From positions 4,032,001 through 4,096,000 of the forward strand of contig OY764216.1 in NCBI GenBank assembly GCA_963668315.1: a DNA stretch of 64,000 bases, written 5' to 3'. Numbering within the stretch: position 1 is the first letter of the stretch; each line of letters begins with the position of its first letter. The notes under the pieces are model-generated. The model was not told the origin of the DNA. It searched no databases and saw only the letters and a list, made by a program, of their open reading frames with translations. This stretch comes from Spirochaetia bacterium (lineage in GTDB: Bacteria; Spirochaetota; Spirochaetia; DSM-2461). Positions 14,501-45,532 of the stretch are shown here, piece after piece. The position numbers and the translations under genes were made by a program.

Positions 14501-14862
14501 ATCTCATCTCCCTTGTCATCGATCTGATAATACTCCGTACTGTCCGCCGATTCGATGTGGATTTCCAGCTTGGAGTCCCGGCCTGCGCTTTTTGATTCGG
14601 TTCCGGCGGCGGATTTTTCGTAGGCGTAGTAAGCCCTGAGCCTCTCCTTGAGCTGATTTTCATTTCCCCCGTCATCGAGAGAAAGGGATCGGCACCAGAT
14701 TCTCAGCTCGTCGAGGCCGGACTGCTCCAGATCCCTTTCGAAATACTGTTCCTCCAGGGAGATGCCTTCCGCCGCCTCCTGTGCCGCCAGCTCCGTCACG
14801 GCCGCCGGCAGGCCCGATACGAGAAAAACAACGATGAGCAGGGAAAGGCGGGACCGGATCAT
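11578..14862 (-). CDS. lptD: Large outer-membrane LPS-assembly protein, LptD-like (spirochaete type)
   Basis: Signal peptide; OstA-like N-terminal region; LYLGRIPLLYLPFYY..P..GF..REG motif; beta-rich C-terminal part; downstream of uvrA. Confidence 0.7.
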   Translation of the reverse strand: MIRSRLSLLIVVFLVSGLPAAVTELAAQEAAEGISLEEQYFERDLEQSGLDELRIWCRSLSLDDGGNENQLKERLRAYYAYEKSAAGTESKSAGRDSKLEIHIESADSTEYYQIDDKGDEIHLTGKVKITVKDNGEDRDYTITADQIVFSRLDDSLTALGNVEYSRAEGGGEAERFLGESMTFHIEGWQGVIYDGVSSRTDSVGGKDIEFYFTGEEISSSGFDLAVMEKGTITSGKWKDPEYSIRAGKIWLNGPEEWGLVNGVLYLGRIPLLYLPFYYKPGNEIFCNPSLGFRNREGTTIQTTTYLIGQKDPENTSFFSAGLNSDAIYELERRGFFLFKGDKEEEEEDGYLKFMADYYSRLGGFIGLEGEVSPGKSTRPVDLFTGIAVSRSIDDGNNYSVFYSEDNYQSRWNSSYIGGLELPFRWGSEVSYSAGSFSLSLMYYSDPYFMGEFTDNRVENFDPLNFVLSDLGEDNTDTSSSTISSFTWSLNWRKNIATEALDPWFEGFNITRFKSSLEWASIKDVENDDEDSPTIKFFYPESITLPDTALSLSGTIWKSGSDGEVNLKAADTARWLFPEGEDGAGSYEGEGGNSAAYLSPEILGSRSLSEENSFSGNFKWSSTTTAIMLNDFDNFLDDTSQDAATPSDISFFLDKGKFSLTNKDSLSLDLDFFDERLSLSNAHNFSISARKYLSLTGENVDLTDSERKDQYSYESVKWNNSSTLKGSPFSYYSLKGSYVKYTLGLDLFEKTYQTMDGSSPVFNELWLADNGDGISQSDLEGYLSFKPVSYFSGSSRYKTALYTDGRDVTSSLDSSLSLTLGPLSNSLSHGLEKSGDEDWESDPLQYKGSLDFDPLDLTFSDSLTYDIEESRFSANTATLKGYGFTFILDADYTYGYDWDRVNYQWVSEEQSFQLSSASAAYSLDWDVPKFWKSRVDAELNLKTGWSQNLIKINDSVLDFSLGSTLSVHEFMDLSFAMVSSNENMYLYLPRYRKDLGIEDRYNFFEDLGKSFNFFNTQDRYDSFFNLSSFKVNLTHYLGNWNFVLDYTGSPTLVEKRYEWESEFSFYLTWDPVPTLNIDVVKDSDDDWDIKAGETD

Positions 14863-29549: not shown

Positions 29550-30443
29550 TTATTCCTTTAAATACTTTGTCTCATATTCCATGGGGCTTAGCTTTCCTAA
29601 ATGACCATGCCTTCTCTTCGGATTATAAAACAACTCGATATAATTGAAAATATCTTTTCTGGCATCCTCCCTGGTTTTATAGATTTTATTCTTAATTCTT
29701 TCCCTTTTCAGATTTGAAAAGAAAGATTCAATTACAGAATTATCCCAACAGTTACCCCTTCGGCTCATACTGGGGTCCAATTTGTGAAACTCACAAAAGT
29801 CTTCCCAATCCTTACTGGTAAATTGACAGCCCTGATCAGAGTGAATGAGAACAGGCTTCTTAGGATTTCTCCTTTTTACAGCCATAAATAAAGCGTCCAT
29901 GACTAAAGAAGCCTTCTGATGACAATTCATAGACCAACCGACAACCCCTCGATTGAACAGATCCAGAACAACGGCCAAGTACAACCATCCTTCATGAGTA
30001 CGGATATACGTGATATCAGTACACCACGCTTTATTGGGTTCTTCTACGGTGAACTCCCTATTCAGAATATTCTCCTGATAAACGTCTCCAGGAACCCAAG
30101 GTACATGATGCTTCTTTCTACGATAAGCACCTTTAATTCCTGCTTCTTTCATCAATTTGGCTATTCTGTTTACGCTATAGCTATATCCAGCATCTTTAAA
30201 ATCTTCATGGATATTTGGACTTCCATAGACTTGTCCACTCTCCTCCCAGTAAAAGCGAATCAATTCTGTGATCTTCTTATTCTCTGTGGTACGGGGAGAT
30301 TCTGGTTCTTTTATCCATCTGTAAAATCCAGAGGGCTGAACATTTAATACTCTACACATTGGTCTGACGGGAAAATTACATCTATGTTCTTTGATGAAGG
30401 CGTACTTTACTGGGCATCGCTCGCAAAGTACGCTGCCTTTTTT
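29550..30443 (-). CDS. IS3 transposase OrfB (DDE), reached by -1 frameshift from orfA
   Basis: WCTDITY, HSDQGCQF, DNSVIESFF..LKRE; -1 frame open back to the AAAAAAG site. Confidence 0.93.
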   Translation of the reverse strand, partial: KKGSVLCERCPVKYAFIKEHRCNFPVRPMCRVLNVQPSGFYRWIKEPESPRTTENKKITELIRFYWEESGQVYGSPNIHEDFKDAGYSYSVNRIAKLMKEAGIKGAYRRKKHHVPWVPGDVYQENILNREFTVEEPNKAWCTDITYIRTHEGWLYLAVVLDLFNRGVVGWSMNCHQKASLVMDALFMAVKRRNPKKPVLIHSDQGCQFTSKDWEDFCEFHKLDPSMSRRGNCWDNSVIESFFSNLKRERIKNKIYKTREDARKDIFNYIELFYNPKRRHGHLGKLSPMEYETKYLKE

Positions 30444-30691
30444 AGGATGTCACGCTCCATCTTCAATTTTCGGATTTCCGCCTTGAGCTTTTTGTTCTCT
30501 TCCTCTGTTTCTGAGAGCTTCTTTTTATCTTTTGATTCACCTGACTTCCAGCCTGCTTTTTTCAGCCAGGCATAAAGGGTGACATCACTGATCCCAATGG
30601 CTTTTGATACCTCAAGAACACTGTGTCCTTCTTCCATAACTAGCTTGATTGCTTCTGCTTTGAATTCCTCTGTATAAGGACTCGTTGACAT
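30407..30691 (-). CDS. IS3 transposase OrfA (HTH)
   Basis: YTEEFKAEAIKL..TLYAW..ERDILKKAA. Confidence 0.93.
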   Translation of the reverse strand: MSTSPYTEEFKAEAIKLVMEEGHSVLEVSKAIGISDVTLYAWLKKAGWKSGESKDKKKLSETEEENKKLKAEIRKLKMERDILKKAAYFASDAQ

Positions 30692-30795
30692 CTAAATACT
30701 CCTTAGTTTCTAAGTATATCAGGTGTCTACAATTTCGGGGGAATGCCAGAAGAAGAATACTTCCCCTCGCAGAGGATATCCTCACGTCATCTATG

Positions 30796-30853
30796 TTGAC
30801 ATATTTACAAATAATCAGTAGTATATCGCACGTAGTATTACTTTGTAATACTA
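30796..30853 (+). promoter_or_regulatory. Promoter with 9-3-9 palindromic operator (candidate metalloregulator site)
   Basis: TTGACA 30796-30801, 17 bp, TAGTAT 30819-30824; TAGTATTAC-TTT-GTAATACTA 30833-30853. Confidence 0.7.
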
Positions 30854-30873
30854 AAGTATTGTGAGGTCTCTAA

Positions 30874-31809
30874 GTGATTACATCATTCATTGAAGAATTT
30901 TCCCTATATTTCATTTCCCTTATACTGGAAGCCTCCGGATTCGTTTAGATTGGAAGCATAATAGGAAGCATTATTGACGAGTTTCTCCCGGAAGACACTA
31001 TCCCCCGACTAATGGGGGACAGGACTTTCGGATCGATTTTCATCGCCGGATTGATAGGTTTGATTCTTCCCATCTGTGAATGCGCCATCGTACCCATCGC
31101 AAAAAAGCTTATGCAAAAAGGGACTCCCCCCGCCGTGGCCATCACCTTTATGCTCGCCGTCCCCATCGTGAATTCCATAGTGAGCCTATCGACGTTCGTG
31201 GCTTTTTCTTCGAACTTCCCAATAGTTCTTATCCGCCTCTTTTCCGGTTATATTCTCTCCATCCTCATAGGAATGATTTTCCTTTCCCCCCTGAAGAAAA
31301 ACAGGGACCGTTTCATTCTCTCCGCAGACAATCGCCACAGCGGATGCTGCTGTTCCCATCACCATCAAGGTGCAATATCCCTGAAAGAGAAATTAGGACA
31401 TATGGCCATCCATACGTGGATAGAGTTTTCCGGAGCCGCCGGCTATCTGTTCATCGGAGCGGGCATAGCGGCCTTTTTCCATTGTTCCGTCCCCATGGGG
31501 CTACTCGACGTATTCAACCGCTTTCCCGGAGGGGATAAGCTTTTCATGATGGCATCCGCATTAATTCTAAACCTCTGCAGCGAAGCGGATGCTTTTGTCG
31601 CCAGAAGCTACTCCGTTCATTTTTCTCCTTCCGCCCTGATGGCGTTTATGGTACTGGGTCCTATGCTGGATATAAAACTACTGGCCATGTATAGAACCAT
31701 CTTCAAACCGCGGATGATCATTATCCTTGCCATAACGATCTTTCTATCAGTCTTCCTATGGATTTCCCTACTCGATGCAGCCGGTATTTTCCGGGGGGTA
31801 TCTCAATGA
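30874..31809 (+). pseudogene. DUF318/ArsP-like permease (YcgR-like) with in-frame TAG at codon 25
   Basis: GAGG RBS + GTG 30874; MITSFIEEFSLYFISLILEASGFV*IGSIIG continues in frame into ORF 31012; motifs PICEC, CSEADAF, GPMLDIK. Confidence 0.75.
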
Positions 31810-33106: not shown

Positions 33107-34873
33107 ATGATAGATCAAAGCAAATCAAGAAAATTCTTCAGAATTTCCGGGATGACCTGCCGGAAATGTGAAACAAGGATTGAAAGCGGTATTAAGCCCA
33201 TTCCCTCCGTCACGCACTGTCAGGCGGATTACGTCAAGGGAATTCTCCAAATCGATTACGAAGGAGAATCATTAAGGGCGAAAGAGATTCTTGCCGCCCT
33301 GTCCGATGCCGGATATGAAGGGGTGGAAATAGGCCGGCTGAGAAAAATATGCCGGGAGATAGTGCCGCTCATTATCACAGGCATTGTCATTTTCATTTTA
33401 TATAGGGCAGGCAAAATGACAGGATGGCTCAATAAAATTCCGGAAATCAGGGAAGATATGAGCTACCCCTTTCTTTTTATCATCGGTCTTCTGACATCCC
33501 TGCACTGCCTGGGTATGTGCGGAGGAATAAATCTGACCCAGTCCGGATTGAAATCCCGAGAAACGGACAGACGTGGCCCAGTCAGAAGAAGCCTGAATTA
33601 TAATACGGGGAGGATTGTATCCTATACGCTGCTGGGGGGAATCGTGGGCGGCCTGGGTTCCGTCCTCTATCTCTCCTTGACGATGCAGACCGTAATAAGC
33701 ATCGCCGCGGGTGCTTTGATGATCATCATGGGCCTTAACATGCTGGGTCTGCTCTCGGCCCTGAAGATTCTCATCCCCGTACTTCCCGCATCCCTTTCGA
33801 TAAAAATCAGCCGACAACGGGGAAAGGCAAGTCCCTTTCTCGTGGGGGTGCTGAACGGTTTCATGCCCTGCGGTCCCCTGCAGTCCATGCAGATCTACGC
33901 CCTGTCCACGGGAAGTATTCTGAAGGGGGCCCTATCCATGTTCCTTTTCAGTGCGGGGACGGTACCCCTCATGTTCGCCTTCGGTTCTTTCAGCCTTTTT
34001 TTCAACCGCCGCCGGCAGAAGAACGTCATGAGAGTAAGCGCCCTGCTGATTGTTATCCTCGGATGGGGTATGATTAGCCGAGGATTGAACCTTAACGGGG
34101 TTTCCTTGATTCCCCGTTCTTCTGAAGAAGTCGTAGAAGGAGCCGCTGTCGCCCGGATAGAGGGAGATGTTCAGATTGTCAATTCAAAGGTGTCCCCTTC
34201 TTCCTATGAACCGATTATTGTACAGGCAGGCATACCGGTGAGATGGAATATTGAGGCCGGTCCGGGAGATATCACGGGATGCAACAACGCCATTGTCTCC
34301 AGGGATTTCGGGATCAGACAGAAACTTTCCGAGGGCTCCACTCTCATAGAATTCACACCGGAGGAAGGGGGAAACTTCGGGTTTACATGCTGGATGGGCA
34401 TGATCAGCTCCCGTATTCTGGTAGTCGAGGATCTCACAGCTTTCGATCCGGAACTGCTCAATTCACCTCCCGACTCAGAGCCGGCCCGGGTAAATATAAA
34501 GATACCGGATTACGAAGCGGAAAACATCGGCTATTCGGAAGTATCCGGCGAGGAACAGTCGGCTGTCATAAATATAGACGAAAGTGGATTCAGCCCTTCC
34601 ATAATCGTCATGGAGCGGAACAGAAAGATGACCTGGGTCTTCAATACGGGAGAAACGGATGAGATAAATCGCAGACTGATCTTCCCTTCCTATAATGCAC
34701 AAATCGATTTGACCGGTAACGACAGCCAAACCATAGAGCTTTTCCCAGAAGGGGATTTTTACTTTTACTCCTGGAAAGGGGATTTTCTGGGATTCGTCAT
34801 CACCGTGGAGGATCTGGACAGCGTATCCGATGAGGAAATACTCAAAAGAATCGCTTCCTACCTCAGCGAATAA
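33107..34873 (+). CDS. HMA + DsbD_2/TauE-like membrane + cupredoxin-like multidomain protein
   Basis: GMTCRKC (HMA), TSLHCLGMCGG, FMPCGPLQ, GCNN...FTCWMGM. Confidence 0.88.
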   Translation: MIDQSKSRKFFRISGMTCRKCETRIESGIKPIPSVTHCQADYVKGILQIDYEGESLRAKEILAALSDAGYEGVEIGRLRKICREIVPLIITGIVIFILYRAGKMTGWLNKIPEIREDMSYPFLFIIGLLTSLHCLGMCGGINLTQSGLKSRETDRRGPVRRSLNYNTGRIVSYTLLGGIVGGLGSVLYLSLTMQTVISIAAGALMIIMGLNMLGLLSALKILIPVLPASLSIKISRQRGKASPFLVGVLNGFMPCGPLQSMQIYALSTGSILKGALSMFLFSAGTVPLMFAFGSFSLFFNRRRQKNVMRVSALLIVILGWGMISRGLNLNGVSLIPRSSEEVVEGAAVARIEGDVQIVNSKVSPSSYEPIIVQAGIPVRWNIEAGPGDITGCNNAIVSRDFGIRQKLSEGSTLIEFTPEEGGNFGFTCWMGMISSRILVVEDLTAFDPELLNSPPDSEPARVNIKIPDYEAENIGYSEVSGEEQSAVINIDESGFSPSIIVMERNRKMTWVFNTGETDEINRRLIFPSYNAQIDLTGNDSQTIELFPEGDFYFYSWKGDFLGFVITVEDLDSVSDEEILKRIASYLSE

Positions 34874-35446: not shown

Positions 35447-36583
35447 TCAGTCCGGCCTGTAAATCCGGGGGACCCTTGACGTTATGGTGGAGACAATTTC
35501 GTAGTTTATGGTCCCCGTCAATTCGGCCAGTTCATCAACGGAAAGGGCTGCGTCTCCCTGTTCTCCGAAAAGAATGACCTCATCCCCCACTTCTACGTCC
35601 CCGATATGTCCCACGTCAATCATGGTCAGGTCCATACAGACTCTGCCGACTACCGGAGCCTTTTCGCCTCTAACGAGCATAACGCCCTTTGAGGAGAGAA
35701 GCCGGCTGTATCCATCGGCATACCCGACAGATACGGTGGCGATCTTCGTCGGCCTTTCCGTCACATAGGTACTGCCGTAGCTGATCTTAAAATCACCGGG
35801 TACATCTTTTAAGTGGATGATCTTCCCTTTCAGAGTCATCACCGGCTTAAGGGGTACGATCGACATATCGACTTCGGGAGAAGGGGCCAGACCGTAAAGG
35901 ATGATCCCCGGCCTGACCATATCCAGATGGGTCTCGGCCATTTCCAGTGTCGCGGCGCTGTTGGCGGCATGGCGGATGGGAATTCTCAATCCCCTCTCCT
36001 CCAGCCGGTCCAGCACTTTCTTGAAGAAGGCGAACTGCTCCCGGGCATGGGTCTTATCAAAGGAGTCGGCATTGGCAAAATGGGTGTAGATCCCTTCCAG
36101 ATTTAATCCGGGCAGTTCGTGTATTCTGAGGACATCGGAGACGATATCATCTACCGAATCCCCCTGCAGACCTACGCGGCCCATTCCCGAATCGATTTTG
36201 ACATGCACCGTGATTCTCTTCCGGAGGGATGCGGCCGCTTCGGAAAGCCTTTGCGCCTCCTCCAGGGAGTTGACCGCGGGAGTCAGGTCATGCTCGGCCA
36301 TCACCACAGCCTGGGAAGGCGGGGTATGGCCGAACATCAAAATAGGGGCTGTGATACCGGCCTTACGCAGACCGACCGCCTCGGAGAGTCGGGCAACGGT
36401 CAGAAAATCCGCTCCGTTCTCCAGGGCTGTCCGGGCGATGCGGACGGCCCCGTGACCGTAGGCATCGGCCTTCACGACGGCGGCCAGCTTCACTCCGGGC
36501 CCGACATGGGCCTTGAGATTCTGCACATTGTTTTTTAAAGCGGACAAATCAATATCCGCCTGAATAACATGTTCTGCTTCCAT
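35447..36583 (-). CDS. alr: Alanine racemase
   Basis: VVKADAYGHG (PLP Lys), KIDSGMGRVG, SYG, GYADG, GRVCMD, TINYE. Confidence 0.96.
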   Translation of the reverse strand: MEAEHVIQADIDLSALKNNVQNLKAHVGPGVKLAAVVKADAYGHGAVRIARTALENGADFLTVARLSEAVGLRKAGITAPILMFGHTPPSQAVVMAEHDLTPAVNSLEEAQRLSEAAASLRKRITVHVKIDSGMGRVGLQGDSVDDIVSDVLRIHELPGLNLEGIYTHFANADSFDKTHAREQFAFFKKVLDRLEERGLRIPIRHAANSAATLEMAETHLDMVRPGIILYGLAPSPEVDMSIVPLKPVMTLKGKIIHLKDVPGDFKISYGSTYVTERPTKIATVSVGYADGYSRLLSSKGVMLVRGEKAPVVGRVCMDLTMIDVGHIGDVEVGDEVILFGEQGDAALSVDELAELTGTINYEIVSTITSRVPRIYRPD

Positions 36584-36589
36584 GGAGAA

Positions 36590-37450
36590 TTAAACCGCAG
36601 CGGCTTCTTTTACGGCATTCCCATAGGCCGTGGTTAATTCATTGAAAGATTCGATGATTCCCCTGGTCTTGGCGCCGGGTTTTCCGCTGCCAATGACAAG
36701 ATCGTCAATTTTGACGACAGGAACGACCTCTTTGTTGGAAGCGGTAATAAAGATCTCTTCGAAATCCTTCAGTTCCTCTTTTTTGATATCCCGGATCTCC
36801 ACTTCATAGGAATCCTTTACCATATCGAGAAGAACATTTCTGGTTACACCGCCCAGGATGTCCTTGCCGGGAGTCACGATTTTATTGCCGATAATGCCGA
36901 AGATATTGGTGGTGGTTCCTTCCAGGACACGATTGTTCCTGTCGACATAGACCGCTTCAACGCAGTCGGCGTTCTGGGCTTTCTGACCGGCCATGACGGC
37001 ATTCAGGTAGTTGATGCTCTTCGCTTCGGGCAGGTACCGTTCGACACCGATGGTCATGATGGAGACTCCGTCGGTATACCACCACGCGGGGCAGGCATGC
37101 TTATGGGTGACCATAACAATCAGTTTTCCCTTTCCTTCGGGAAGTACGCCGCTGGAGCTTTCTCCACCGGTGACTACGATACGGATATTGGCTTCTTCGA
37201 GATCGGGATTTTTATCCATGGTATCGTTCACAGCCTGGGCGATCTCTTCATCGCTCCACTTGAGATCAAGACCGATTATATTGCAGGAATTCCTCAGTCT
37301 TTTGATATGATCTTCCAGATGAAAGGGACGTCTGTTATAGGTTCTCATAAAATCGAATGCACCGTAACCGCGCAGAACGGCAATGTCTTTTGCCGAAACC
37401 ATAGCTTCATTTTCAGGAACGAATTTTCCGTCAACATAGTAAATATCCAT
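36590..37450 (-). CDS. Fold-type IV aminotransferase, likely D-amino-acid transaminase
   Basis: LRGYGAFDFMR (R27), NIRIVVTGG (R90), EAKSINY (PLP Lys), ILGGVTR; lacks the BCAT YGxxxFEG pattern. Confidence 0.8.
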   Translation of the reverse strand: MDIYYVDGKFVPENEAMVSAKDIAVLRGYGAFDFMRTYNRRPFHLEDHIKRLRNSCNIIGLDLKWSDEEIAQAVNDTMDKNPDLEEANIRIVVTGGESSSGVLPEGKGKLIVMVTHKHACPAWWYTDGVSIMTIGVERYLPEAKSINYLNAVMAGQKAQNADCVEAVYVDRNNRVLEGTTTNIFGIIGNKIVTPGKDILGGVTRNVLLDMVKDSYEVEIRDIKKEELKDFEEIFITASNKEVVPVVKIDDLVIGSGKPGAKTRGIIESFNELTTAYGNAVKEAAAV

Positions 37451-37452
37451 CT

Positions 37453-38307
37453 TTATACCTCCGAGCTGGATCTGTTTCTTAATCTTTCAATATCATCTTT
37501 CTGCTGGCGCAGAATATTAACCGCTTCTTCCCGTGTGATTTTCTTAAAATGCAGTTTCTGTCCGGGCATATACTGGCCCAGAAGATCCGTATCGGCAGAA
37601 ATCACATTAAATATCCGGGGGTACCCCCCCACCGTCTGCCTGTGCTTCAGCAGAATGATAGGCCCCTTCGGCGTTAACTGAACCGTTCCGGTGGCCACCG
37701 CTTCGGAGACCATGTTCCCCAGGGAGACGCTCAGCCGGACATCGGGATTTTCCAGACGCATTCCCATATCGCTTGTATCGCCCGATATGGTCCAGGACGT
37801 ATTCAGAAAGAGCTCCTTATCGGCCAGGAAGGAGTATTCCGGTCCTTCCACGACGCGGATATATCCTTCCGGATCGGGCCAGGTCGCCAGATCACCGAAG
37901 GCTCCCCTTTCCCGGCCTGCCGGGGACTCCGAAAAAGCCTTGCCGGCGGCCCGGTAACAGAGATAGGTTCTGAATCCGTAATGCCTCTCGCCAAAGGAGA
38001 GGACCGATCCCTTCCCGGCCGCATAAACTGTTCCGTGGTCTATTTTTATTGTTCCTCCGGGACCTTTCAGGGTAACGCCGCAGTAGGCCGAACCGGTCAG
38101 GACAAAGCAGCCATCCTCTTCAAACTCCAGAGAAGGGGGAAAGAGGATTTCCAGAGCCGGAGCATCGGGAGGATTCCCCAGAAGGATGTTTCCCGTCTGC
38201 AACGCAAACAGGTCCATGGCACCTCCCGGTGTTATTCCCACATCCTGATTGCCGAAGGAAGGGAGAGAAACCCTTTTACATAATCCCTGCTGGACCGTCT
38301 TGAACAT
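37453..38307 (-). CDS. pxpC: 5-oxoprolinase subunit C (AHS2/KipA family)
   Basis: GITPGGAMD..GNILLGN..LEI, SDMGMRL, GTVQL..QTVGGYPRI; start reassigned to MFKTV at 38307. Confidence 0.88.
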   Translation of the reverse strand: MFKTVQQGLCKRVSLPSFGNQDVGITPGGAMDLFALQTGNILLGNPPDAPALEILFPPSLEFEEDGCFVLTGSAYCGVTLKGPGGTIKIDHGTVYAAGKGSVLSFGERHYGFRTYLCYRAAGKAFSESPAGRERGAFGDLATWPDPEGYIRVVEGPEYSFLADKELFLNTSWTISGDTSDMGMRLENPDVRLSVSLGNMVSEAVATGTVQLTPKGPIILLKHRQTVGGYPRIFNVISADTDLLGQYMPGQKLHFKKITREEAVNILRQQKDDIERLRNRSSSEV

Positions 38308-38308
38308 A

Positions 38309-39037
38309 TCAGGCAATATCCGTCCCGGAAAGTTTCGCTGCCAGCTCGAGGGAGATGGGTGAATCGGAATGGATGCAGATCGTATCGGCTTTGATATCAA
38401 CTTCTTCTGTCGTTACCGTTCCGTCGGCCCGGGTTATATGGCCGTCGATTTTCCCGTTTTTAACGATATTCATGGCGTGGGCCACCGCTTCATCCAGATC
38501 ATGGATAGAGGCGTAATCCAGCTTACGGCTGACCAGGGTCAACTGACCGGTCCGGGGATCATAGGCGTAACGCCTTTCGGCAAAGGCCTCATAGAAGACA
38601 TCCATTCCCAGAGTCAGGCTTTCGGCAGCCAGACAGGACTGGTAAGGGGTTACCACCGTCTTTATCCCCTGCTCCTTCAGCCATCCGGCCAGAATCCGGG
38701 AAAGGTCCGGCCTGACCCAGCAGTCGTTGTAAAGGGCTCCGTGAAACTTGACTTTGTCCACGCCGCCTATGAGTTCATACTGGGCATCGAGGCTTTTCAG
38801 AAGATCAGCCGGAGCGATATCCATGGAGAAACGGCCGAAGTTCTCCCTGTCGGGATAGGACAGGTGGGCTGTAACGGCGACCTGATTCTCTTCGGCCAGT
38901 TTTTTGAAGGCGTCTATGCTCTCCCCATCTCCCGCATGGCCGCCGCAGGCGATATTCGCCATGCTGATATGCTTCATCAATTCAATATCAACGGGATGGT
39001 CGGCACCTCTTTCGCCGATGTCGCAATTTATATGCAT
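38309..39037 (-). CDS. pxpA: 5-oxoprolinase subunit A (LamB/YcsF family)
   Basis: INCDIGE, ANIACGGHAG, HLSYPDRENFGR, KFHGALYN, TICIHSD. Confidence 0.93.
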   Translation of the reverse strand: MHINCDIGERGADHPVDIELMKHISMANIACGGHAGDGESIDAFKKLAEENQVAVTAHLSYPDRENFGRFSMDIAPADLLKSLDAQYELIGGVDKVKFHGALYNDCWVRPDLSRILAGWLKEQGIKTVVTPYQSCLAAESLTLGMDVFYEAFAERRYAYDPRTGQLTLVSRKLDYASIHDLDEAVAHAMNIVKNGKIDGHITRADGTVTTEEVDIKADTICIHSDSPISLELAAKLSGTDIA

Positions 39038-39657
39038 CAGTTAATCTCCTTCATAATAACAGTGTCGCCCGGCTCTATCAGCAGCAGATGCTTCGGATCG
39101 GTAGAGCCGATAAGATTCCACCCCCCCGGGGATTCCTGCGGATAGATTCCGGTCTGTGCTCCGCCGATAGCCACGGCCCCGGCAGGCACTTTCACCCGGG
39201 GGCTGTCGAGCCGCGGGGTTTCCAGGCGGGGGTCCAGACCGATCAGATAGGGGAAGTTCGGAAGAAAGCCGACCATAGCAACGGTAAAAGTACTGCCCCT
39301 GTGCAGGTCGATAACCTCACGGACCGTAAGTTTATGCAGATCAGCCACGCGCTCAAGATCCTCCCCGTCATACCGGACAGGTATTTCCACTCTCTTGCCC
39401 GCCTGCTCTCCCCCGGAATCATCCCGGCTGAAGCAGGAAGAGACATACTCTTCCAGCTCGGATCTGTCCGTCGTCAGGGGATCGAAATGAACAGCCAGGG
39501 CATTGTATGAGGGAACAAGGTCCAGGATACCCCGTGAAGCCGGTCCCTCTTCTTTTAAGCGGCGGTAAACCGACAGGATCCGGGAGGAAACCTCCGCATC
39601 TATCGTGCGAGACAGGGACCAGCAGAGGCAGGAATCGCCCAGAGGATACCGCTCCAT
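39037..39657 (-). CDS. pxpB: 5-oxoprolinase subunit B (AHS1/KipI family)
   Basis: VPSY, IPVRYDGEDL, GFLPNFPYL, PRVKVPAGAVAIGG..YPQESPGGWNLIG. Confidence 0.93.
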   Translation of the reverse strand: MERYPLGDSCLCWSLSRTIDAEVSSRILSVYRRLKEEGPASRGILDLVPSYNALAVHFDPLTTDRSELEEYVSSCFSRDDSGGEQAGKRVEIPVRYDGEDLERVADLHKLTVREVIDLHRGSTFTVAMVGFLPNFPYLIGLDPRLETPRLDSPRVKVPAGAVAIGGAQTGIYPQESPGGWNLIGSTDPKHLLLIEPGDTVIMKEIN

Positions 39658-40566
39658 TTACATCTCCCGGTCTGCGCCTGAGGCCAGTTCAAAAAGCTGT
39701 CCGTAAAGATCATGTTCCCAGGAAGCATCGAGCCCGTCAACCGTGGCCTTATGCTCGCCGCTGACCCCGTCCACGGCTCCGGCTTCCACCACGGCATTCA
39801 GAATGCCGGCGAATTCACCGGGAGAGGGAAGAAGGTTTCTTCCGGCCATAAGGGACAGGAGGGCGGCTTTTCCGTAACCGGCCCAGTTGCTCACGCCGGC
39901 GCAGACACAATGGTGGGCATTGGTTTTACAGCTGAAGGCCCTTCCGGGCGCCACATGAACATCCACCATATTCGAAACAAGGCCCATGCCCAGTTCGTTT
40001 CCGCCGTCTCCTATACCGATAGTTCTGATCCCCTGTGCGGCGCAGTATTTGAAAAGCGTATCCACCGGTGCCACGGCAAAGGATATATCGTCCCCCCGGA
40101 AGTTGTAATATTTACCGTCCACGGCCATTCCGGGACGTTCAATGGCCACGAAATGGGTGGTATCGGGGCGTACGGAATTCACGGCGATGAGATCGTCCTC
40201 CCTGTCATAACCGACGATGTCCATCTCCCTTCCGATAGAAGCGAATCCGGCTTTCATAATATCCACCGAATGGGAATCGACGATAATGGTAACCTCTTTT
40301 CCCAGCCGGACCAGAGCTTCTGCCAGCACGACGGCACCCGGAGGGCCGTCCGTCTCGATCACACCGGCGCTCTTTATGAAAAAACCGGTGGTAAGGAGGA
40401 TATGCTTCCCCTCCAGAAGGGATTCGGTGGCGGGAAGAATATGATCCTGTACGGCCCAGTCGGCCAGGCCTCTTTTTCCCGGATCCTGCTGAATAAGCGT
40501 CTCAATGAACCGGGCATTCTGAGCCCAGGTCTGTTTCTCACTATCAGATTTTAAAATCACGGTCAT
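39658..40566 (-). CDS. DUF4392 / D-glutamate cyclase-like domain protein
   Basis: TTGF..ETDGPPGA, IERPG..G.YYN.RG, IGIGDGGNELGMG, VSNWAGYG, GAVDGV. Confidence 0.88.
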   Translation of the reverse strand: MTVILKSDSEKQTWAQNARFIETLIQQDPGKRGLADWAVQDHILPATESLLEGKHILLTTGFFIKSAGVIETDGPPGAVVLAEALVRLGKEVTIIVDSHSVDIMKAGFASIGREMDIVGYDREDDLIAVNSVRPDTTHFVAIERPGMAVDGKYYNFRGDDISFAVAPVDTLFKYCAAQGIRTIGIGDGGNELGMGLVSNMVDVHVAPGRAFSCKTNAHHCVCAGVSNWAGYGKAALLSLMAGRNLLPSPGEFAGILNAVVEAGAVDGVSGEHKATVDGLDASWEHDLYGQLFELASGADREM

Positions 40567-41323
40567 AAAGGTCTCCTATAAACATATGTCCCGGGGCGTG
40601 GGTTATCATGATGGGGGGCTTTGCCACCACGGCGGCAGACTGGGGCGTCACGCCGCAGGCCCAGAAAACGGGAATTTCATTTTCCCGGACAGTCACGGCA
40701 TCGCCGTAATCGGGTTTATTTAAATCTTTTATGCCGATCATCCCGGGATGGGCCAGATGAACGGGACTTCCATGCACGGCAGGATAATCCCGGGTAATTT
40801 CGATGGAACGGATGGCATCCTTGGGTTCGAAGGGGCGCATACTGACGACCATGGGGACATCGGTAAAACGGCCCGCATCACGGCACATCAGGTTGGTCCT
40901 GTACATGGGCACATTGACATTTTCCGTAATATGACGGACATCCAGCCCTCCGGCCAGCAGAGCCTGTTCAAAGGAAAAGCTGCAGCCGATAAGAAAAAAA
41001 ACAAAATCATCACGCCACAGATCGGAAATATCGGTGCACTCCCTGGTCAGCTCACCCTTCTCATAGACACGGTATTTGGGAAGATCGGTGCAGATATCGG
41101 CATGATCGGCCAGAATATCGGTAAAACGGGACCCCTTCTCCCCCACTTCCAGAATAGGACAGGGTTTGGGATTCCGCTGGGCAAAGAGAAGAAAATCCTG
41201 GGCCCAGTCTGCCGGCAGAATGGCCAGATTTGCCTGTACATGCCCGCTGGCAAGACCGGCCGTAGGTCCTGTTAACACTTGAGACCGGCAATCCTGCCGG
41301 ACTTCTTCTGCTGTCTGACTCAT
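40544..41323 (-). CDS. DUF1445 / YcsI putative hydro-lyase
   Basis: QANLAILP..F..RNPKPCP, GCSFSFE, NVPMYRTN, VVSMRP, HGSPVH, FWACGVTPQ, THAPGHM. Confidence 0.92.
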   Translation of the reverse strand: MSQTAEEVRQDCRSQVLTGPTAGLASGHVQANLAILPADWAQDFLLFAQRNPKPCPILEVGEKGSRFTDILADHADICTDLPKYRVYEKGELTRECTDISDLWRDDFVFFLIGCSFSFEQALLAGGLDVRHITENVNVPMYRTNLMCRDAGRFTDVPMVVSMRPFEPKDAIRSIEITRDYPAVHGSPVHLAHPGMIGIKDLNKPDYGDAVTVRENEIPVFWACGVTPQSAAVVAKPPIMITHAPGHMFIGDLYDRDFKI

Positions 41324-41674
41324 ATCATCCTCACCAGGTAATAATCATCCGAACCGGAACCTTTTAAGGTCCGGCCAGGAGTGCATTATTAAATATATAT
41401 TCAAAATCTATAGGGACATTATTCAATTTGGTTGTTTTAATCAATACCCGAAATACCGTTTTTCGTATTTTTAATCATCCTATTCTACGTTTTCACATAG
41501 ACACAAAGGGTATATCTACGCTTTACAATGTACTACATAAATGTATATTTATTCATAATATCTTTTATTTCTCTATACTGCATAAAATTAAATGGCTTAC
41601 ATAATTGTATGAAGCTCTTTTCCTTAACCTGTAACCTCAGAAAAGCGCTGGCCCGGAATAGCCCTTAGGGGAAG

Positions 41675-41706
41675 AAAAAAAAGCCGTCCTGACAGCAGAA
41701 CGGCTT
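41675..41706 (-). terminator. Intrinsic terminator after murD
   Basis: Minus strand GCCGTTCTGCTGTCAGGACGGC followed by T8. Confidence 0.8.
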
Positions 41707-41750
41707 CATTATGATAATGAGAAAAATAATCCTTCTTCGGAAAGGCTCCT

Positions 41751-43127
41751 TCAGGAGAGGGAATCCACCAGGGCTTTGAACTGATTCCCCCTGTCGAATT
41801 CATTCAGAAACATTCCGAAGGAAGTTGCCCCGGGAGAAAGAATGACCCTGTCACCCGGTTCCGCCAGGCCGACGGCCTGGTCAAAAGCCTCTTTTAAAGA
41901 ACCATAGGGTCCCTGGTAAACGATCTTTTCCCGATCCATAATATCCATCATGCTGTCGGTGGCGCTGCCCTTGAGCAGAATGACGGCCTTGGCTTTCTGC
42001 ATTTTTCCCTCGAATACGGAGAAGTCCAGATTCTTGTCGGTTCCCCCGCAGATAAGCACGGGTTTATCCTTAAAGCTCTCAACGGCGGCAACCAGGGCGT
42101 CGGGTATGGTCGCGGCCGTGTCATTGTAAAACTCAACTCCCCTCTTCGTCCCGCACAATTCCATTCTGTGAGGGACGCCGGGAAAGCTCTTCACAGCTTT
42201 GACGACCTCTTCCCGGGCGATGCCGAAAAGGCGGGCCATGGAAGCGGCGATCAGCAGATTGCCTCTCAGGTGCCTTCCGGGAAGGGCGATATCGTCGGGA
42301 ACCAGAAGCTCCTCCCCCCCGCCGGAATTACGGAACCACCCCTGCCCGCCCTGAAGGCCGAAGCTGACCTGATCGGAAAAGGAATCATCCTCAGTGGAAA
42401 AAAGAAGAACATCGGCCTTCGTCTGATTCGGCCAGTCACGATGATTCTCCTTAATCGGCATCAAGGCCTTCTGACCGGGTTTCTGTTCGCTGTAGATAAC
42501 CAGTTTATCGTCTATGTAATCCTGAATACTTTCGTAACGGTTCTGGTGGTCGTGCATAATATTGGTAATAACGGCGATTTCCGGATGAAGGAGATCTTTC
42601 CCCCTCAGATCCGCCAGCTGCCAGGAGGAGAGCTCCAGCACGACCGGATCCTCCGGGTTCAGCTGATCCAGAAAGCTCAGGGGAGATATGGTGATATTCC
42701 CCCCCAGGCGGCTGCCGGGGAAGCTCTGTTTGAGGATATGGTGGAGGGCTGAAACGGTGGTGGATTTTCCCTTGCTCCCCGTAACAGCCAGAATGGGATT
42801 AGGGCAGAACATCAGAAAAAGAGACAAGTCGGTCTCTATCCGCCGGGCCATTTTCAGGTAGGGAGAATCCAGGGTAACGGCCGGATTCTTTATGACCATG
42901 GCGGCATTGCGGAAGTCCTCCTCCTCATGGCGTCCCAGTACGTAACGTATGGGCAGGCCTTCCAGCTCCTTAATGGTGGGAGCCAGGATATCGCGGTCCC
43001 TGAGATCGGTCACGGTGACCAAGGCTCCTTCTCTGGCGAGAAATCGGGCAGAGGCCAACCCGCCCCCGTTCAGTCCCAGTCCCATTACCGTTACCGGCAT
43101 ATCTTTAAGTTCTTCTCGGTTCATCAT
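41751..43127 (-). CDS. murD: UDP-MurNAc-L-Ala:D-glutamate ligase
   Basis: GLGLNGGG, TGSKGKSTT, LELSSWQL, PHRME, NDTAAT, LSPGATSFGMF. Confidence 0.95.
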   Translation of the reverse strand: MMNREELKDMPVTVMGLGLNGGGLASARFLAREGALVTVTDLRDRDILAPTIKELEGLPIRYVLGRHEEEDFRNAAMVIKNPAVTLDSPYLKMARRIETDLSLFLMFCPNPILAVTGSKGKSTTVSALHHILKQSFPGSRLGGNITISPLSFLDQLNPEDPVVLELSSWQLADLRGKDLLHPEIAVITNIMHDHQNRYESIQDYIDDKLVIYSEQKPGQKALMPIKENHRDWPNQTKADVLLFSTEDDSFSDQVSFGLQGGQGWFRNSGGGEELLVPDDIALPGRHLRGNLLIAASMARLFGIAREEVVKAVKSFPGVPHRMELCGTKRGVEFYNDTAATIPDALVAAVESFKDKPVLICGGTDKNLDFSVFEGKMQKAKAVILLKGSATDSMMDIMDREKIVYQGPYGSLKEAFDQAVGLAEPGDRVILSPGATSFGMFLNEFDRGNQFKALVDSLS

Positions 43128-43312: not shown

Positions 43313-45532
43313 TTGTACAGAGCAGTTCTATTACCTTTCCTATTTTTACTAACCATCATAAATACTCCGCCGCTCCTTTCCCAGGAGATGTCATCGGATG
43401 ACCCGGTAGTCGCCCTTGTTCTTGCCGGAGGGGGAGCCCTGGGATTCGCCCATGTGGGAGCCCTCAAAGTGCTGGAAGAGGAAGGCATTCATCCCGATCT
43501 GGTCATTGGGGCCAGTATGGGGAGCATCGTGGGCGGTCTTTACTGTACGGGCTACTCAGCGGAGGAGATTGAAAATCTGGTAATTGGAACGGATTGGAAG
43601 GAAACCATGCTGGACAATTACGACAGAAGGAAACTCAGCTATGAGAAGAGGAGAAACCAGCCTTCCTACAACATATCCCTGGGGACGGAAAAGGAGAACA
43701 GGGTTAGCGATGCGGGCTTGTCCCAGGCCCAGCATGTCATGGAACTTCTGGACGCTTACCTGGCGCCCTATACGACGGAAATGGATTTCGATGACCTCCC
43801 CGTCCCTTTTCGCGCCGTGGGAGCCGATTTGCTCACCGGAGAGAAGGTCGTAATGGGAAAGGGGGATTTAAAGAGGGCAATCCGGGCCTCCATGGCCGTG
43901 CCCGGCATATTCACTCCCGTGGAATACGGGGACCGGTTCCTCATTGACGGCGGGTGGGCGGAAAATCTTCCCACGACCGTGGCCCGTGAAATGGGAGCGG
44001 ACATTGTCATAGCCGTTTCCCTCTTCTCCTTGGAGGGAGACATGGACAAGCTGAATACGGTGGGGGCCGTCACCGCCCAGGCCGATCAGATCCGCACTCT
44101 GGAACGGTACAGAATGAGCCGGGAAGCGGCTGACCTGATCATATCTCCCGAACTTTCCGGGTATACCATGGCCGATTTCGAAAGGAGCGCCCGCCTCTCC
44201 GAGCTTGGATACCAGGCGGCGGACCGGATGCGGGGCGAGATCCGGGCTCTGGCCGATTCTCTGAAAAAGGACAGGCTCGCATCACAGGCCCGAACCTGTG
44301 ATGACAGGGTAATTCCCCTTTCGGCCATAAATGTCTCGATAGACGGGAATAGGGTCAGGGAGGAGAAACTGGAAAAGGAAATCACCGAGGCCCTGGGTGA
44401 CGCACCCCGGTTAAGTGAAATCCGCCAAAAACTGTATTCCCTTTACGACAGGGGCGATTATACCCATGTCTGGTACCGCCTTGTGCCGGCGGACGGGGAA
44501 AAGTTCACGATGGAAGTCGACGCGCCGGGCGGTATCATTCCGGAAAACAGTTTCAGCCTGGCCCTTGATTTTTCCAGCCAGGCCATCGAGGGACGCATAA
44601 CGGAATTCTCCCTGAAAACCTCCTACCAGCGCTGGCTGGACAACAGCAGGCGCAACCGGCTGGAACTGGAGCTCCGGCTGTCCGATTTTCCCTCCCTTGC
44701 CACGGAATTCGATCATAAATTCCCCGACAGGGATATGTCCCTCGGCGGGGAAGCCCACTTCAGAAGTGATACCCGGTACTTCTTCGAGGACAGCACCGTT
44801 TCGTCACTCTACGGCAGGCAGATTCTGGGAGCGGAGACCTATCTGGAACACTCCTTTTTTGACCGTTTCGATATTAAGGGAGTTCTGTATTATGACTTTT
44901 TCTGGATGGATCATCAGCTGGGCGTTGACTTCCTGGAAGATGAGACATGGCAGAGACTGGGGGCAAGAGGCATCATTTCCATTGATACCCTGGACAGGCG
45001 GGTCGTACCCAGGAAAGGGGTGAATGCGGTCTACCTGGTTGAGGGAGGCGTTGACAGAGAGGGAAACCGGATCGGATTCTATAAAACCGCCGGACTGGTT
45101 TACCTCTCCCTGACGGACTTCCTCGTGGCCGTTCCCCGCTGGGAAGCCCAGGGGCTTCTGGCAGGGACTCTCTCCCCCCTGGAAGCTCCCACTCTAGGAA
45201 ATTACATCAGCCTCTACGGATACTATCCCCAGGAACTGAGGGATGAGAACGCGGTCATGGGAGGAATGGAAATCCGGATAAAGCTGGCCAGCCTGCCCCT
45301 GGGAATCGGCAATGATGTCTATCTCGCCGCCGGGGGAAATTATGCCGCCCTGTGGGAGGACGACATACAGAAGCAGTATGACAACTACAGGGATTTCTAC
45401 GGTTTCGGGACCGGCCTTATCCTGAATACCATTCTGGGGGAAGTAAGCTTTACCATAAGCGGCAACAGGGACGGGAGGTTATCCTCTTTCTTCGGAATCA
45501 GCACTTCACTGCCCCTGGCGGAAAAGCTCTGA
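43313..45532 (+). CDS. Patatin-like phospholipase with C-terminal Omp85-like beta-barrel (PlpD / type Vd-like)
   Basis: Signal peptide, GGGALG, GASMG, IDGG; beta-rich C-terminal half with DTLDRRVVPRKG and LYGY. Confidence 0.82.
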   Translation: MYRAVLLPFLFLLTIINTPPLLSQEMSSDDPVVALVLAGGGALGFAHVGALKVLEEEGIHPDLVIGASMGSIVGGLYCTGYSAEEIENLVIGTDWKETMLDNYDRRKLSYEKRRNQPSYNISLGTEKENRVSDAGLSQAQHVMELLDAYLAPYTTEMDFDDLPVPFRAVGADLLTGEKVVMGKGDLKRAIRASMAVPGIFTPVEYGDRFLIDGGWAENLPTTVAREMGADIVIAVSLFSLEGDMDKLNTVGAVTAQADQIRTLERYRMSREAADLIISPELSGYTMADFERSARLSELGYQAADRMRGEIRALADSLKKDRLASQARTCDDRVIPLSAINVSIDGNRVREEKLEKEITEALGDAPRLSEIRQKLYSLYDRGDYTHVWYRLVPADGEKFTMEVDAPGGIIPENSFSLALDFSSQAIEGRITEFSLKTSYQRWLDNSRRNRLELELRLSDFPSLATEFDHKFPDRDMSLGGEAHFRSDTRYFFEDSTVSSLYGRQILGAETYLEHSFFDRFDIKGVLYYDFFWMDHQLGVDFLEDETWQRLGARGIISIDTLDRRVVPRKGVNAVYLVEGGVDREGNRIGFYKTAGLVYLSLTDFLVAVPRWEAQGLLAGTLSPLEAPTLGNYISLYGYYPQELRDENAVMGGMEIRIKLASLPLGIGNDVYLAAGGNYAALWEDDIQKQYDNYRDFYGFGTGLILNTILGEVSFTISGNRDGRLSSFFGISTSLPLAEKL

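Follow-up and report, generated by a model that had tools for sequence, protein, structure and literature searches.

The subject of this analysis is a run of seven genes on the minus strand of a 64,000-nt stretch of DNA (the window) from a Spirochaetia bacterium of the DSM-2461 lineage (assembly GCA_963668315.1, OY764216.1, positions 4,032,001 to 4,096,000), which sits in one 5.62-Mb contig. In their order on that strand, the genes encode a DUF1445 protein, a DUF4392 protein, the 5-oxoprolinase-type subunits PxpB, PxpA, and PxpC, a fold-type IV aminotransferase, and the alanine racemase Alr. The reading that we prefer, with a probability of about 40%, is that these genes are one conserved string that salvages D-glutamate (D-Glu) and its lactam, 5-oxo-D-proline. 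From DUF1445 to Alr, the junctions between successive genes measure -23, 0, -1, +1, +2, and +6 nt. An earlier note on this DNA had described seven co-oriented genes with overlaps or gaps of 0 to 6 bp, and this description is borne out, the exception being the 23-nt overlap of DUF1445 with DUF4392. The value of +1 nt for the PxpA/PxpC junction presumes that PxpC starts at ATG 38307. An alternative start at TTG 38400, which would overlap PxpA by 92 nt, was rejected, as related proteins are ~283 amino acids (aa) long, a size that fits ATG 38307.

Families were assigned with Pfam and NCBIfam profiles on the minus-strand open reading frames (ORFs), and all of the family assignments made in the earlier note hold under these profiles. 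The DUF1445 protein (UPF0317, YcsI/PxpI type; positions 40544 to 41323, 259 aa) matches PF07286 ("D-Glu_cyclase") with an E value of 7e-63 (211 bits, cutoff of 25) and NF003969, named "putative hydro-lyase," with 394 bits (cutoff of 324). The DUF4392 protein ("GLUCM-like_C"; 39658 to 40566, 302 aa) matches PF14336 (E 2e-77), and its named close homologues are Spirochaetales and Oceanispirochaeta records. Next come a PxpB-type (KipI-like) protein (39037 to 39657, 206 aa; PF02682, E 9e-63), a PxpA-type (LamB/YcsF) protein (38309 to 39037, 242 aa; PF03746, E 2e-50), and a PxpC-type (KipA-like) protein (37453 to 38307, 284 aa from ATG 38307; PF02626, E 1e-49). With the NCBIfam models, PxpB is just over the cutoff (TIGR00370, 146.3 bits versus 145.55), while PxpA (best PxpA model, 173.7 versus 213) and PxpC (NF045499, 129.9 versus 500) are under it. 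The aminotransferase (36590 to 37450, 286 aa) matches PF01063 and is under every NCBIfam cutoff, and the Alr protein (35447 to 36583, 378 aa) matches PF01168, PF00842, and TIGR00492, the last with 417 bits against a cutoff of 168. The genome holds three alr homologues (417, 342, and 250 bits), among which the operon copy scores highest.

D-Glutamate cyclase has reportedly been worked on by Katane et al. and by Meister. The mouse enzyme, DGLUCY (C14orf159 / 9030617O03Rik, EC 4.2.1.48; Ariyoshi et al. 2017, PMC5339696), consists of an N-terminal DUF1445 domain and a C-terminal DUF4392 domain, a domain order that is also given in PMC5132392, and it converts D-Glu to 5-oxo-D-proline. PMC5339696 reports neither racemase nor oxidase activity for the mouse enzyme and describes a buildup of D-Glu in the knockout mouse. 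The earlier note had recognized the two halves of DGLUCY as separate adjacent genes in the window, and indeed both domains are found here in the same order as in the mouse protein, on two genes that overlap by 23 nt, whereas the animal enzyme is a single polypeptide. Vertebrate proteins are 35 to 40% identical to the window DUF4392, and fused bacterial and vertebrate forms are 35 to 55% identical to the window proteins and have the same invariant residues. DGLUCY in animals has no such partner genes, and its lactam product leaves the body by excretion; in contrast, the window pair belongs to an operon that also encodes a transaminase, Alr, and an ATP-dependent oxoprolinase. Since six split homologues of human GLUCM are already tabulated in a gut microbiome survey (PMC11580864), the split itself is not new.

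The DUF4392 protein matches the PDB entry for TON_0340 (E 4e-33), and the TON_0340 ligands E59, D61, E115, D157, E161, and D246 align to E71, D73, E143, D187, E191, and D277. These six acidic metal ligands are invariant across 21 homologues. Judged by its ligand set, DUF4392 has a site for two metal ions (Mn2+) and belongs to the TON_0340 type. The family and the six ligands are common to both proteins, while the gene context differs. TON_0340 itself, from Thermococcus onnurineus, has been reported only as a weak Mn2+-dependent phosphatase, with no known physiological small substrate (PMC5132392).

The DUF1445 protein matches the unannotated PDB entries 2PIF (E 3e-87) and 3DB9 (E 3e-86). In an alignment of 10 sequences that includes vertebrate DGLUCY and bacterial fusions, 58 residues are invariant, among them Cys114 and Cys223, which sit in GCSFSFE and WACGVT motifs and are as invariant in the vertebrate and fused forms as elsewhere. 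The two cysteines may resemble those of two-base racemases. A predicted model (m2c5280c678f2, predicted local distance difference test score of 93.6) was compared with 48,161 chains by VIA-align, and at a Z of at least 5 only 2pif (Z 35.8) and 3nek (Z 9.5; root mean square deviation of 4.2 over 167 aligned residues) were found, in agreement with Foldseek. None of the racemase folds (Asp/Glu racemase, DapF, or proline racemase) reached a Z of 5 against this model, a result that counts only as an absence, and an ESM Atlas search with PF07286 excluded gave no usable match. The one fold relative beyond the family itself, 3nek, is the NrpR-like nitrogen repressor protein MJ0159. NrpR is known to sense 2-oxoglutarate, whose carbon skeleton is that of glutamate. 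Based on domain content, order, and invariant residues, DUF1445 and DUF4392 are likely to be a split bacterial form of D-glutamate cyclase.

The prokaryotic 5-oxoprolinase PxpABC was reportedly described by Niehaus et al. in 2017, and an ATP-independent 5-oxoprolinase exists in Alcaligenes. The PF02682, PF03746, and PF02626 subunits are adjacent in the window, as they are in PxpABC; the order is B-A-C here and B-C-A in E. coli pxpBCA (L092). The B. subtilis region pxpA(ycsF)-ycsG-pxpI(ycsI)-kipI-kipA likewise groups the same three families and also contains DUF1445. A DUF1445 gene had been said to occur in the B. subtilis pxp operon, and pxpI is in fact named in the kip region, with a PF07286 match in B. 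subtilis. Among 14 control genomes, PF07286 is found in B. subtilis and C. glutamicum and PF14336 in none. Compared with known PxpABC systems, the window thus adds DUF4392 (which is not in B. subtilis or the 13 other controls), the transaminase, and Alr. Subunits of the same Pfam families are also adjacent in C. difficile kipOTIA (10.1101/2024.05.01.592088).

The window subunits are not close to those of E. coli, with identities of 33% for PxpA, 34% for PxpB, and 29% for PxpC. The corresponding subunits linked to cyclase clusters in Clostridia are 43 to 50% (PxpA), 33 to 45% (PxpB), and 36 to 38% (PxpC) identical to those of E. coli and 29 to 34%, 35 to 42%, and 26 to 31% identical, respectively, to those of the window. 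PxpA is found in 12 of 41 relatives. The 6 of the 41 that bear DUF4392 have one PxpA each, inside the cluster, with scores of 169 to 187 bits, while the high-scoring PxpA proteins (238 to 324 bits) occur in 4 relatives, all of which are without DUF4392. One further relative (G145) has a PxpA of 175 bits and no DUF4392 match with the window protein as query, and another has a broken PxpA copy. As judged by these scores and their distribution, the Pxp set of the window is a separate, divergent subfamily that travels together with the cyclase-type pair. The 29 relatives without PxpA indicate that disposal of 5-oxo-L-proline by PxpABC is not generally needed in the lineage. Profile searches of the window genome found a single PxpA, a single DUF1445, and no match to Hydantoinase_B, so the operon PxpBAC is the only 5-oxoprolinase candidate of this genome.

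The best PDB matches of the aminotransferase are archaeal branched-chain aminotransferases (BCATs; 5mqz, E 2e-43), followed by the Halhy entries 7p7x and 7p8o (E 2e-37). The matches after the BCATs also include 8onl and 8ahr, presumably noncanonical D-amino-acid transaminases of Aminobacterium. The substrate-site motifs tell the candidates apart. The window enzyme has R27xxxxFDFMR, N-I-R (R90) followed by TGGESSSG, and an ASNK beta-turn, all of which are invariant in five operon-linked orthologues. According to PMC8401098, the motifs are R28xxxxFDYFL, GxR90 followed by GYSPDG, and STIK in Halhy; YxxxxF[ED]Gx[KR], YxR, and GTAA in BCATs; and FxxxxYxV[IVA][KR], [RK]xH, and STTS in Bacillus D-amino-acid transaminase (DAAT). 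The window enzyme is not a canonical (Bacillus-type) DAAT: it is without the R-x-H loop, and it scores 151.8 bits with TIGR01121, under the cutoff of 277. Identity as a BCAT was rejected despite the best PDB and NCBIfam matches, because the window enzyme has Arg in place of Tyr, Phe in place of Gly, Asn in place of Tyr95, and ASNK in place of GTAA, and all BCAT models of NCBIfam are under their cutoffs. It shares with Halhy (Haliscomenobacter hydrossis, PDB 7P7X) the Arg residues at the R28* and R90 positions, FD(F/Y), an O-pocket loop that is short and has no R-x-H, and a beta-turn of Ser/Ala-x-x-Lys; the residue corresponding to Halhy R179 is Thr. Halhy is described in PMC8401098 as strictly a D-amino-acid transaminase, with D-Glu as the amino donor that it uses best. 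We therefore predict, from the motifs, that the window enzyme is a D-amino-acid transaminase of the Halhy type, which agrees with its earlier labeling as DAAT-like.

We surveyed DUF4392 neighborhoods with one genome per species in 18 of 64 parts of the genome collection and kept the best 80 loci. Same-strand neighbors up to 6 kb away were counted by tblastn, for which the queries were the window proteins and a HyuA/HyuB-type protein of L027, because a crude ORF caller had lost genes in GC-rich loci (e.g., the transaminase of L016). DUF1445 is a neighbor in 38 of the 80 loci, PxpB in 15, PxpA in 14, PxpC in 12, a MurD-like stretch in 12, a class IV aminotransferase in 5, and Alr in 4. An oxoprolinase of any kind is a neighbor in 25, which divide into 15 of the Pxp type and 10 of a fused HyuA/HyuB type (~1280 aa; 11 by clustering, one of them an end fragment). 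Many of the 80 loci stop at contig edges, and among the 36 whose flanks extend 5 kb or more in each direction, 20 have DUF1445, 12 have an oxoprolinase (7 Pxp type and 5 HyuA/B type), 8 have a MurD-like stretch, and 14 have neither DUF1445 nor an oxoprolinase, which indicates that the DUF4392 family is broader than this system. Where DUF4392 does have partners, they are DUF1445 and an ATP-dependent enzyme for lactam opening, which has one of two unrelated architectures, and this linkage to 5-oxoprolinase extends over many lineages. The strongest argument for 5-oxoproline as the metabolite common to these loci is this nonorthologous swap of oxoprolinases (Pxp versus HyuA/HyuB). In six of the Clostridial loci (L024, L026, L045, L059, L064, and L066), a DUF3870 gene (~107 aa) lies ~300 nt upstream of DUF4392.

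The gene order DUF1445-DUF4392-PxpB-PxpA-PxpC-aminotransferase, which we term type A, is present in all nine further loci that reach that far. These are in metagenome-assembled genomes (MAGs) of Oceanispirochaeta (L012), Desulfolunaceae (L014), Spirochaetales (L015), and Syntrophorhabdaceae (L016) and in five genomes from the family to which the window belongs (L179 to L183); a tenth locus, in a Bacteriovoracaceae MAG (L013), ends after PxpA. Alr follows the string in six of the nine (L012, L015, L016, L179, L180, and L183). Conservation elsewhere of the transaminase and Alr linkage, on which the original proposal depended, is thus found for the transaminase in 9/9 and for Alr in 6/9 type-A loci. 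The cluster is patchy, being present in 5 of 24 sampled family genomes, 1 of 3 other genus genomes, and none of 16 genomes of other families of the class. In the Clostridial and Phycisphaerae clusters, the transaminase is mostly not found. Two Clostridial clusters (L081 and L086), however, have a canonical-type DAAT, with TIGR01121 as the top match (213 to 215 bits, cutoff of 277) and with both F..Y and R-x-H present. With the Halhy-type enzyme in window-like operons, this means that two transaminase lineages have been recruited to cyclase/Pxp clusters.

Several other genes with links to D-Glu or gamma-glutamyl metabolism were observed near type-A clusters. An enolase superfamily gene at L012:17386-18447 has as its best matches L-Ala-D/L-Glu epimerase (231 bits, under the cutoff) and the N-acetyl-D-Glu racemase DgcA. 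An Amidohydro_3 gene and a gamma-glutamyltranspeptidase gene lie at L016:6503-10113, and a Na+:alanine symporter and a YheO-type regulator lie upstream of the cluster in L014.

Gene fusions join the same partners. DUF4392-PxpB fusions of 516 to 536 aa were found in L015 (6552 to 8102, 516 aa) and in P0069, P0070, P0104, P0108, P0121, and P0122, and they are Rosetta-stone evidence that DUF4392 may work with the PxpBC part of the oxoprolinase. DUF4392 and DUF1445 are fused in bacteria in both orders (P0207 and P0173 versus P0158), one of which is the order seen in vertebrates. Such fusions point to a putative physical association of DUF4392 with DUF1445 or with PxpB. The commonest architecture among the 120 longer matches listed is DUF4392 joined to a MurD that has its N-terminal and ATP-binding domains but no C-terminal domain (L027:10034-11812, L032:9863-11782, L019:9923-11713, and P0123 to P0206). 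These MurD-head fusions usually have a HyuA/HyuB oxoprolinase-like gene before them and DUF1445 after them, and two triple fusions have the arrangement DUF4392-MurD head-DUF1445 (P0147, 913 aa; P0160, 866 aa). Some fusions are named "D-glutamate cyclase" or "glutamate cyclase domain-containing protein" by the source annotation pipelines. The MurD heads keep the P-loop Lys, GGN, SSxQL, N..H..R, and the Lys at the position of K208 of the window MurD; with these motifs kept, they do not look dead.

The genomes that carry MurD-head fusions were compared for murI. No murI was found over the cutoff in any of five such genomes (G001 to G005), and four of the five have a full-length murD. Among 121 genomes sampled from the class of G001, 75 have murI over the cutoff and 5 have DUF4392. 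Of these DUF4392 holders, G001 and G060 have fused-size frames and no detected murI, G094 and G101 have a stand-alone DUF4392 with murI present, and G017 has an 895-aa frame with murI present. Taken together, murI was not detected in 6 of 6 fusion holders (G001 to G005 and G060), which are few and probably related genomes. Four of G001 to G005 have DAAT-like genes (230 to 246 bits, under the cutoff of 277).

By its gene content, the operon is a variant of the known 5-oxoprolinase cluster with an added split D-glutamate cyclase and a D-amino-acid module. From the families, the gene order and its conservation, the fusions, and the motifs, we infer the substrates, the direction of flux, and any complex as follows. 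DUF1445 and DUF4392 would interconvert D-Glu and 5-oxo-D-proline, and the divergent PxpBAC would supply ATP-driven ring opening. It may do so jointly with the pair, on the D-lactam, or side by side with it, on the L-lactam. In the latter, parallel variant, PxpBAC would act on the L-lactam and the cyclase pair would run backwards on the D-lactam. The Halhy-type transaminase would then convert D-Glu and pyruvate to 2-oxoglutarate and D-Ala, and Alr would convert D-Ala to L-Ala, so that the D-to-L step would be taken by the transaminase and the racemase and not by a 5-oxoproline racemase. Since the transaminase and Alr would already form an ATP-free exit for D-Glu, the cyclase and oxoprolinase are most sensible upstream of D-Glu, opening 5-oxo-D-proline. 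Salvage of this kind needs no new racemase, gives each gene one role, and makes the gene order the order of the proposed reactions. It fits the divergent Pxp subfamily, the DUF4392-PxpB fusions, the patchy distribution expected of an accessory trait, and the presence of murI. Taken together, the two oxoprolinases, the two transaminase lineages, and the fusions constrain the chemistry to D-Glu and 5-oxoproline better than a single operon could.

There are also observations that weigh against D-Glu salvage. By analogy, the animal enzyme would argue for the opposite direction, since it runs from D-Glu to the lactam in vivo, and a cyclase combined with a D-lactam-opening ATPase would make a futile cycle unless it were regulated or held in a complex. 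Characterized PxpABC and HyuA/HyuB-type oxoprolinases act on the L-lactam, the Clostridial clusters carry a canonical-looking PxpABC, and the standing of PxpBAC as the sole oxoprolinase candidate of the genome fits ordinary disposal of L-5-oxoproline equally well. The window operon has no transporter or regulator to point at a substrate. Further points come from a reverse scan of metagenome contigs for the RGYGxFDF aminotransferase subfamily, in which 80 loci (40 to 55% identity) were kept from 21 of 64 collection parts. None of the 58 loci that have 1 kb or more of upstream sequence carries PxpC, and none of the 31 with 4.5 kb or more of it carries any cyclase or Pxp gene. These counts indicate that the transaminase, with or without Alr, is an independent D-amino-acid module, and it is joined to the cyclase/Pxp module in type-A lineages only. 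This subfamily is widespread by itself (L094 to L172), with an estimated ~1900 stretches. Its neighbors include Ddl-like, Asp/Glu-racemase-like, and PGA_cap (poly-gamma-glutamate capsule) genes at four loci each and thioredoxin reductase-like genes at 10; Alr follows directly in 7 loci in all, 6 of them among the 50 that extend 1.3 kb or more downstream.

Four other readings were weighed against D-Glu salvage. One, the route of the earlier note, is a serious though less probable alternative and keeps the lactam as an intermediate: D-Glu fed in by the transaminase from D-Ala or other D-amino acids would be cyclized to 5-oxo-D-proline, a racemase, for which DUF1445 is the best candidate, would give the L-lactam, and an L-specific PxpBAC would open it to L-Glu with ATP. 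This route would draw on the known L-specificity of oxoprolinases, and it accounts better than D-Glu salvage for the two unrelated L-type oxoprolinases beside the pair and for DUF1445 occurring alone with PxpABC in B. subtilis. The two invariant cysteines of DUF1445 and the absence of any other oxoprolinase candidate from the genome are also on its side, and the cyclase would run in the direction known for DGLUCY (PMC5339696). However, vertebrate DGLUCY, whose product is 5-oxo-D-proline and for which PMC5339696 reports no glutamate racemase activity, has these cysteines as invariant residues too, and the structural comparison of the DUF1445 model brought up no racemase fold at a Z of at least 5, though this is an absence only. 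The lactam intermediate also leaves no linear role for Alr, and D-Glu could already be removed without ATP through the transaminase and Alr. A further proposal, which we consider unlikely, makes DUF1445, DUF4392, and the oxoprolinase an ATP-driven machine for stereo-inversion of glutamate via 5-oxoproline, with one DUF protein as the racemase. It would run from D-Glu to L-Glu here, and in the murI-less Phycisphaerae and Desulfarculia the MurD-head-fused core would run in reverse and feed D-Glu into peptidoglycan. If true, this would be a third route to cell wall D-Glu beside MurI/DAAT and MurD2/MurL.

It is quite unlikely, in our judgment, that the operon is simply two modules with no obligatory flux between them, one for 5-oxoproline disposal (metabolite repair) and the other, the transaminase and Alr, for making or balancing D-Ala and D-Glu. 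The reverse scan suits such an arrangement, as the transaminase subfamily is mostly found elsewhere without cyclase/Pxp genes upstream, has Alr downstream in 7 of 80 metagenome loci, and otherwise neighbors cell envelope D-amino-acid genes, and so does the general lack of the transaminase in the Clostridial and Phycisphaerae clusters. In contrast, the tight 2-nt PxpC/transaminase junction, the linkage kept in 9/9 type-A loci across several phyla, and the recruitment of a second, unrelated DAAT lineage in Clostridial clusters all argue that the modules belong together, and the two have a single metabolite, D-Glu, in common. The least probable of these readings is a cell wall role, in which Alr and the transaminase would make D-Ala and D-Glu for MurD and the cyclase and oxoprolinase would buffer D-Glu or make it from the lactam. 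The only murD of the genome over the TIGR01087 cutoff (385.5 bits versus 212) is directly upstream at 41751 to 43127 on the minus strand, DUF4392 is fused elsewhere to the MurD N-terminal and ATP-binding domains, and murI was not detected in 6/6 fusion genomes, versus its presence in 75 of the 121 genomes of the class sample. Nevertheless, a terminator-like hairpin directly 3' of the murD stop codon (41707 to 41680, minus strand; 12-bp stem, 4-nt loop, T-run) and a total of 427 nt separate murD from the operon, and murD is near 0 of 9 related type-A clusters. We therefore rejected murD as a member of the operon and conclude that its neighborhood at this locus is incidental, contrary to the earlier note, which had treated the adjacency as meaningful. 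That note had also proposed a racemase-independent route that might buffer the D-Glu pool used by MurD, and a racemase-independent D-Glu supply is not supported either: a canonical murI (TIGR00067, 198.6 bits) is present in this genome, so D-Glu synthesis is independent of the operon, and murI is also found in 3/5 type-A relatives and in 5/5 Clostridial genomes with Pxp-linked clusters. The genome's two further alr homologues and the patchiness among relatives, which is unlike a core biosynthetic trait, are additional arguments against a cell wall role, and in the fusion genomes the DAAT-like genes found in 4/5 could supply D-Glu.

D-Glutamate is present in every peptidoglycan, and to our knowledge bacteria have few routes for its disposal, namely, MurI running backwards, D-amino-acid dehydrogenase or transaminase, and DgcN/DgcA. 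We know of no bacterial enzyme for 5-oxo-D-proline. The earlier statement that the complete bacterial route is undescribed agrees with our search, in which no paper on a bacterial cyclase-oxoprolinase-transaminase route was found in the literature covered, most subscription journals being outside its scope. With the D-Glu salvage proposed here, two widespread uncharacterized families (DUF1445, with structures 2PIF and 3DB9, and DUF4392, with TON_0340) gain a concrete functional hypothesis. Should it be true that MurD-head fusions supply D-Glu in murI-less bacteria, this would be a new route to a cell wall precursor.

The AT-rich spacer in front of DUF1445 (41324 to 41679, minus strand) is presumed, as read from its sequence, to hold the promoter and leader of the operon. 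A minus-strand promoter scan found no promoter-like site in this spacer, and in an Rfam search of 41250 to 41800 no family reached its gathering score, with two subthreshold matches on the terminator hairpin. On the other side of the operon, a gene for a DnaQ-type exonuclease converges on the 3' side of alr at a distance of 6 nt. Elsewhere in the window, a 1094-aa ORF adjoining uvrA (11578 to 14862, minus strand) has no Pfam match at an E value of 1e-6 or less. An IS3-type transposase (rve core, HTH_21) lies at 29550 to 30359 on the minus strand, where there is a low-GC stretch (0.40 at 30000 to 30999). An HMA metal-binding domain occurs with a DsbD_2 membrane domain and a weak cupredoxin-like stretch in a 588-aa protein (33107 to 34873, plus strand). 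Divergent from murD, at 43313 to 45532 on the plus strand, is a gene for a 739-aa protein with a patatin-like phospholipase domain and an Omp85-type barrel.

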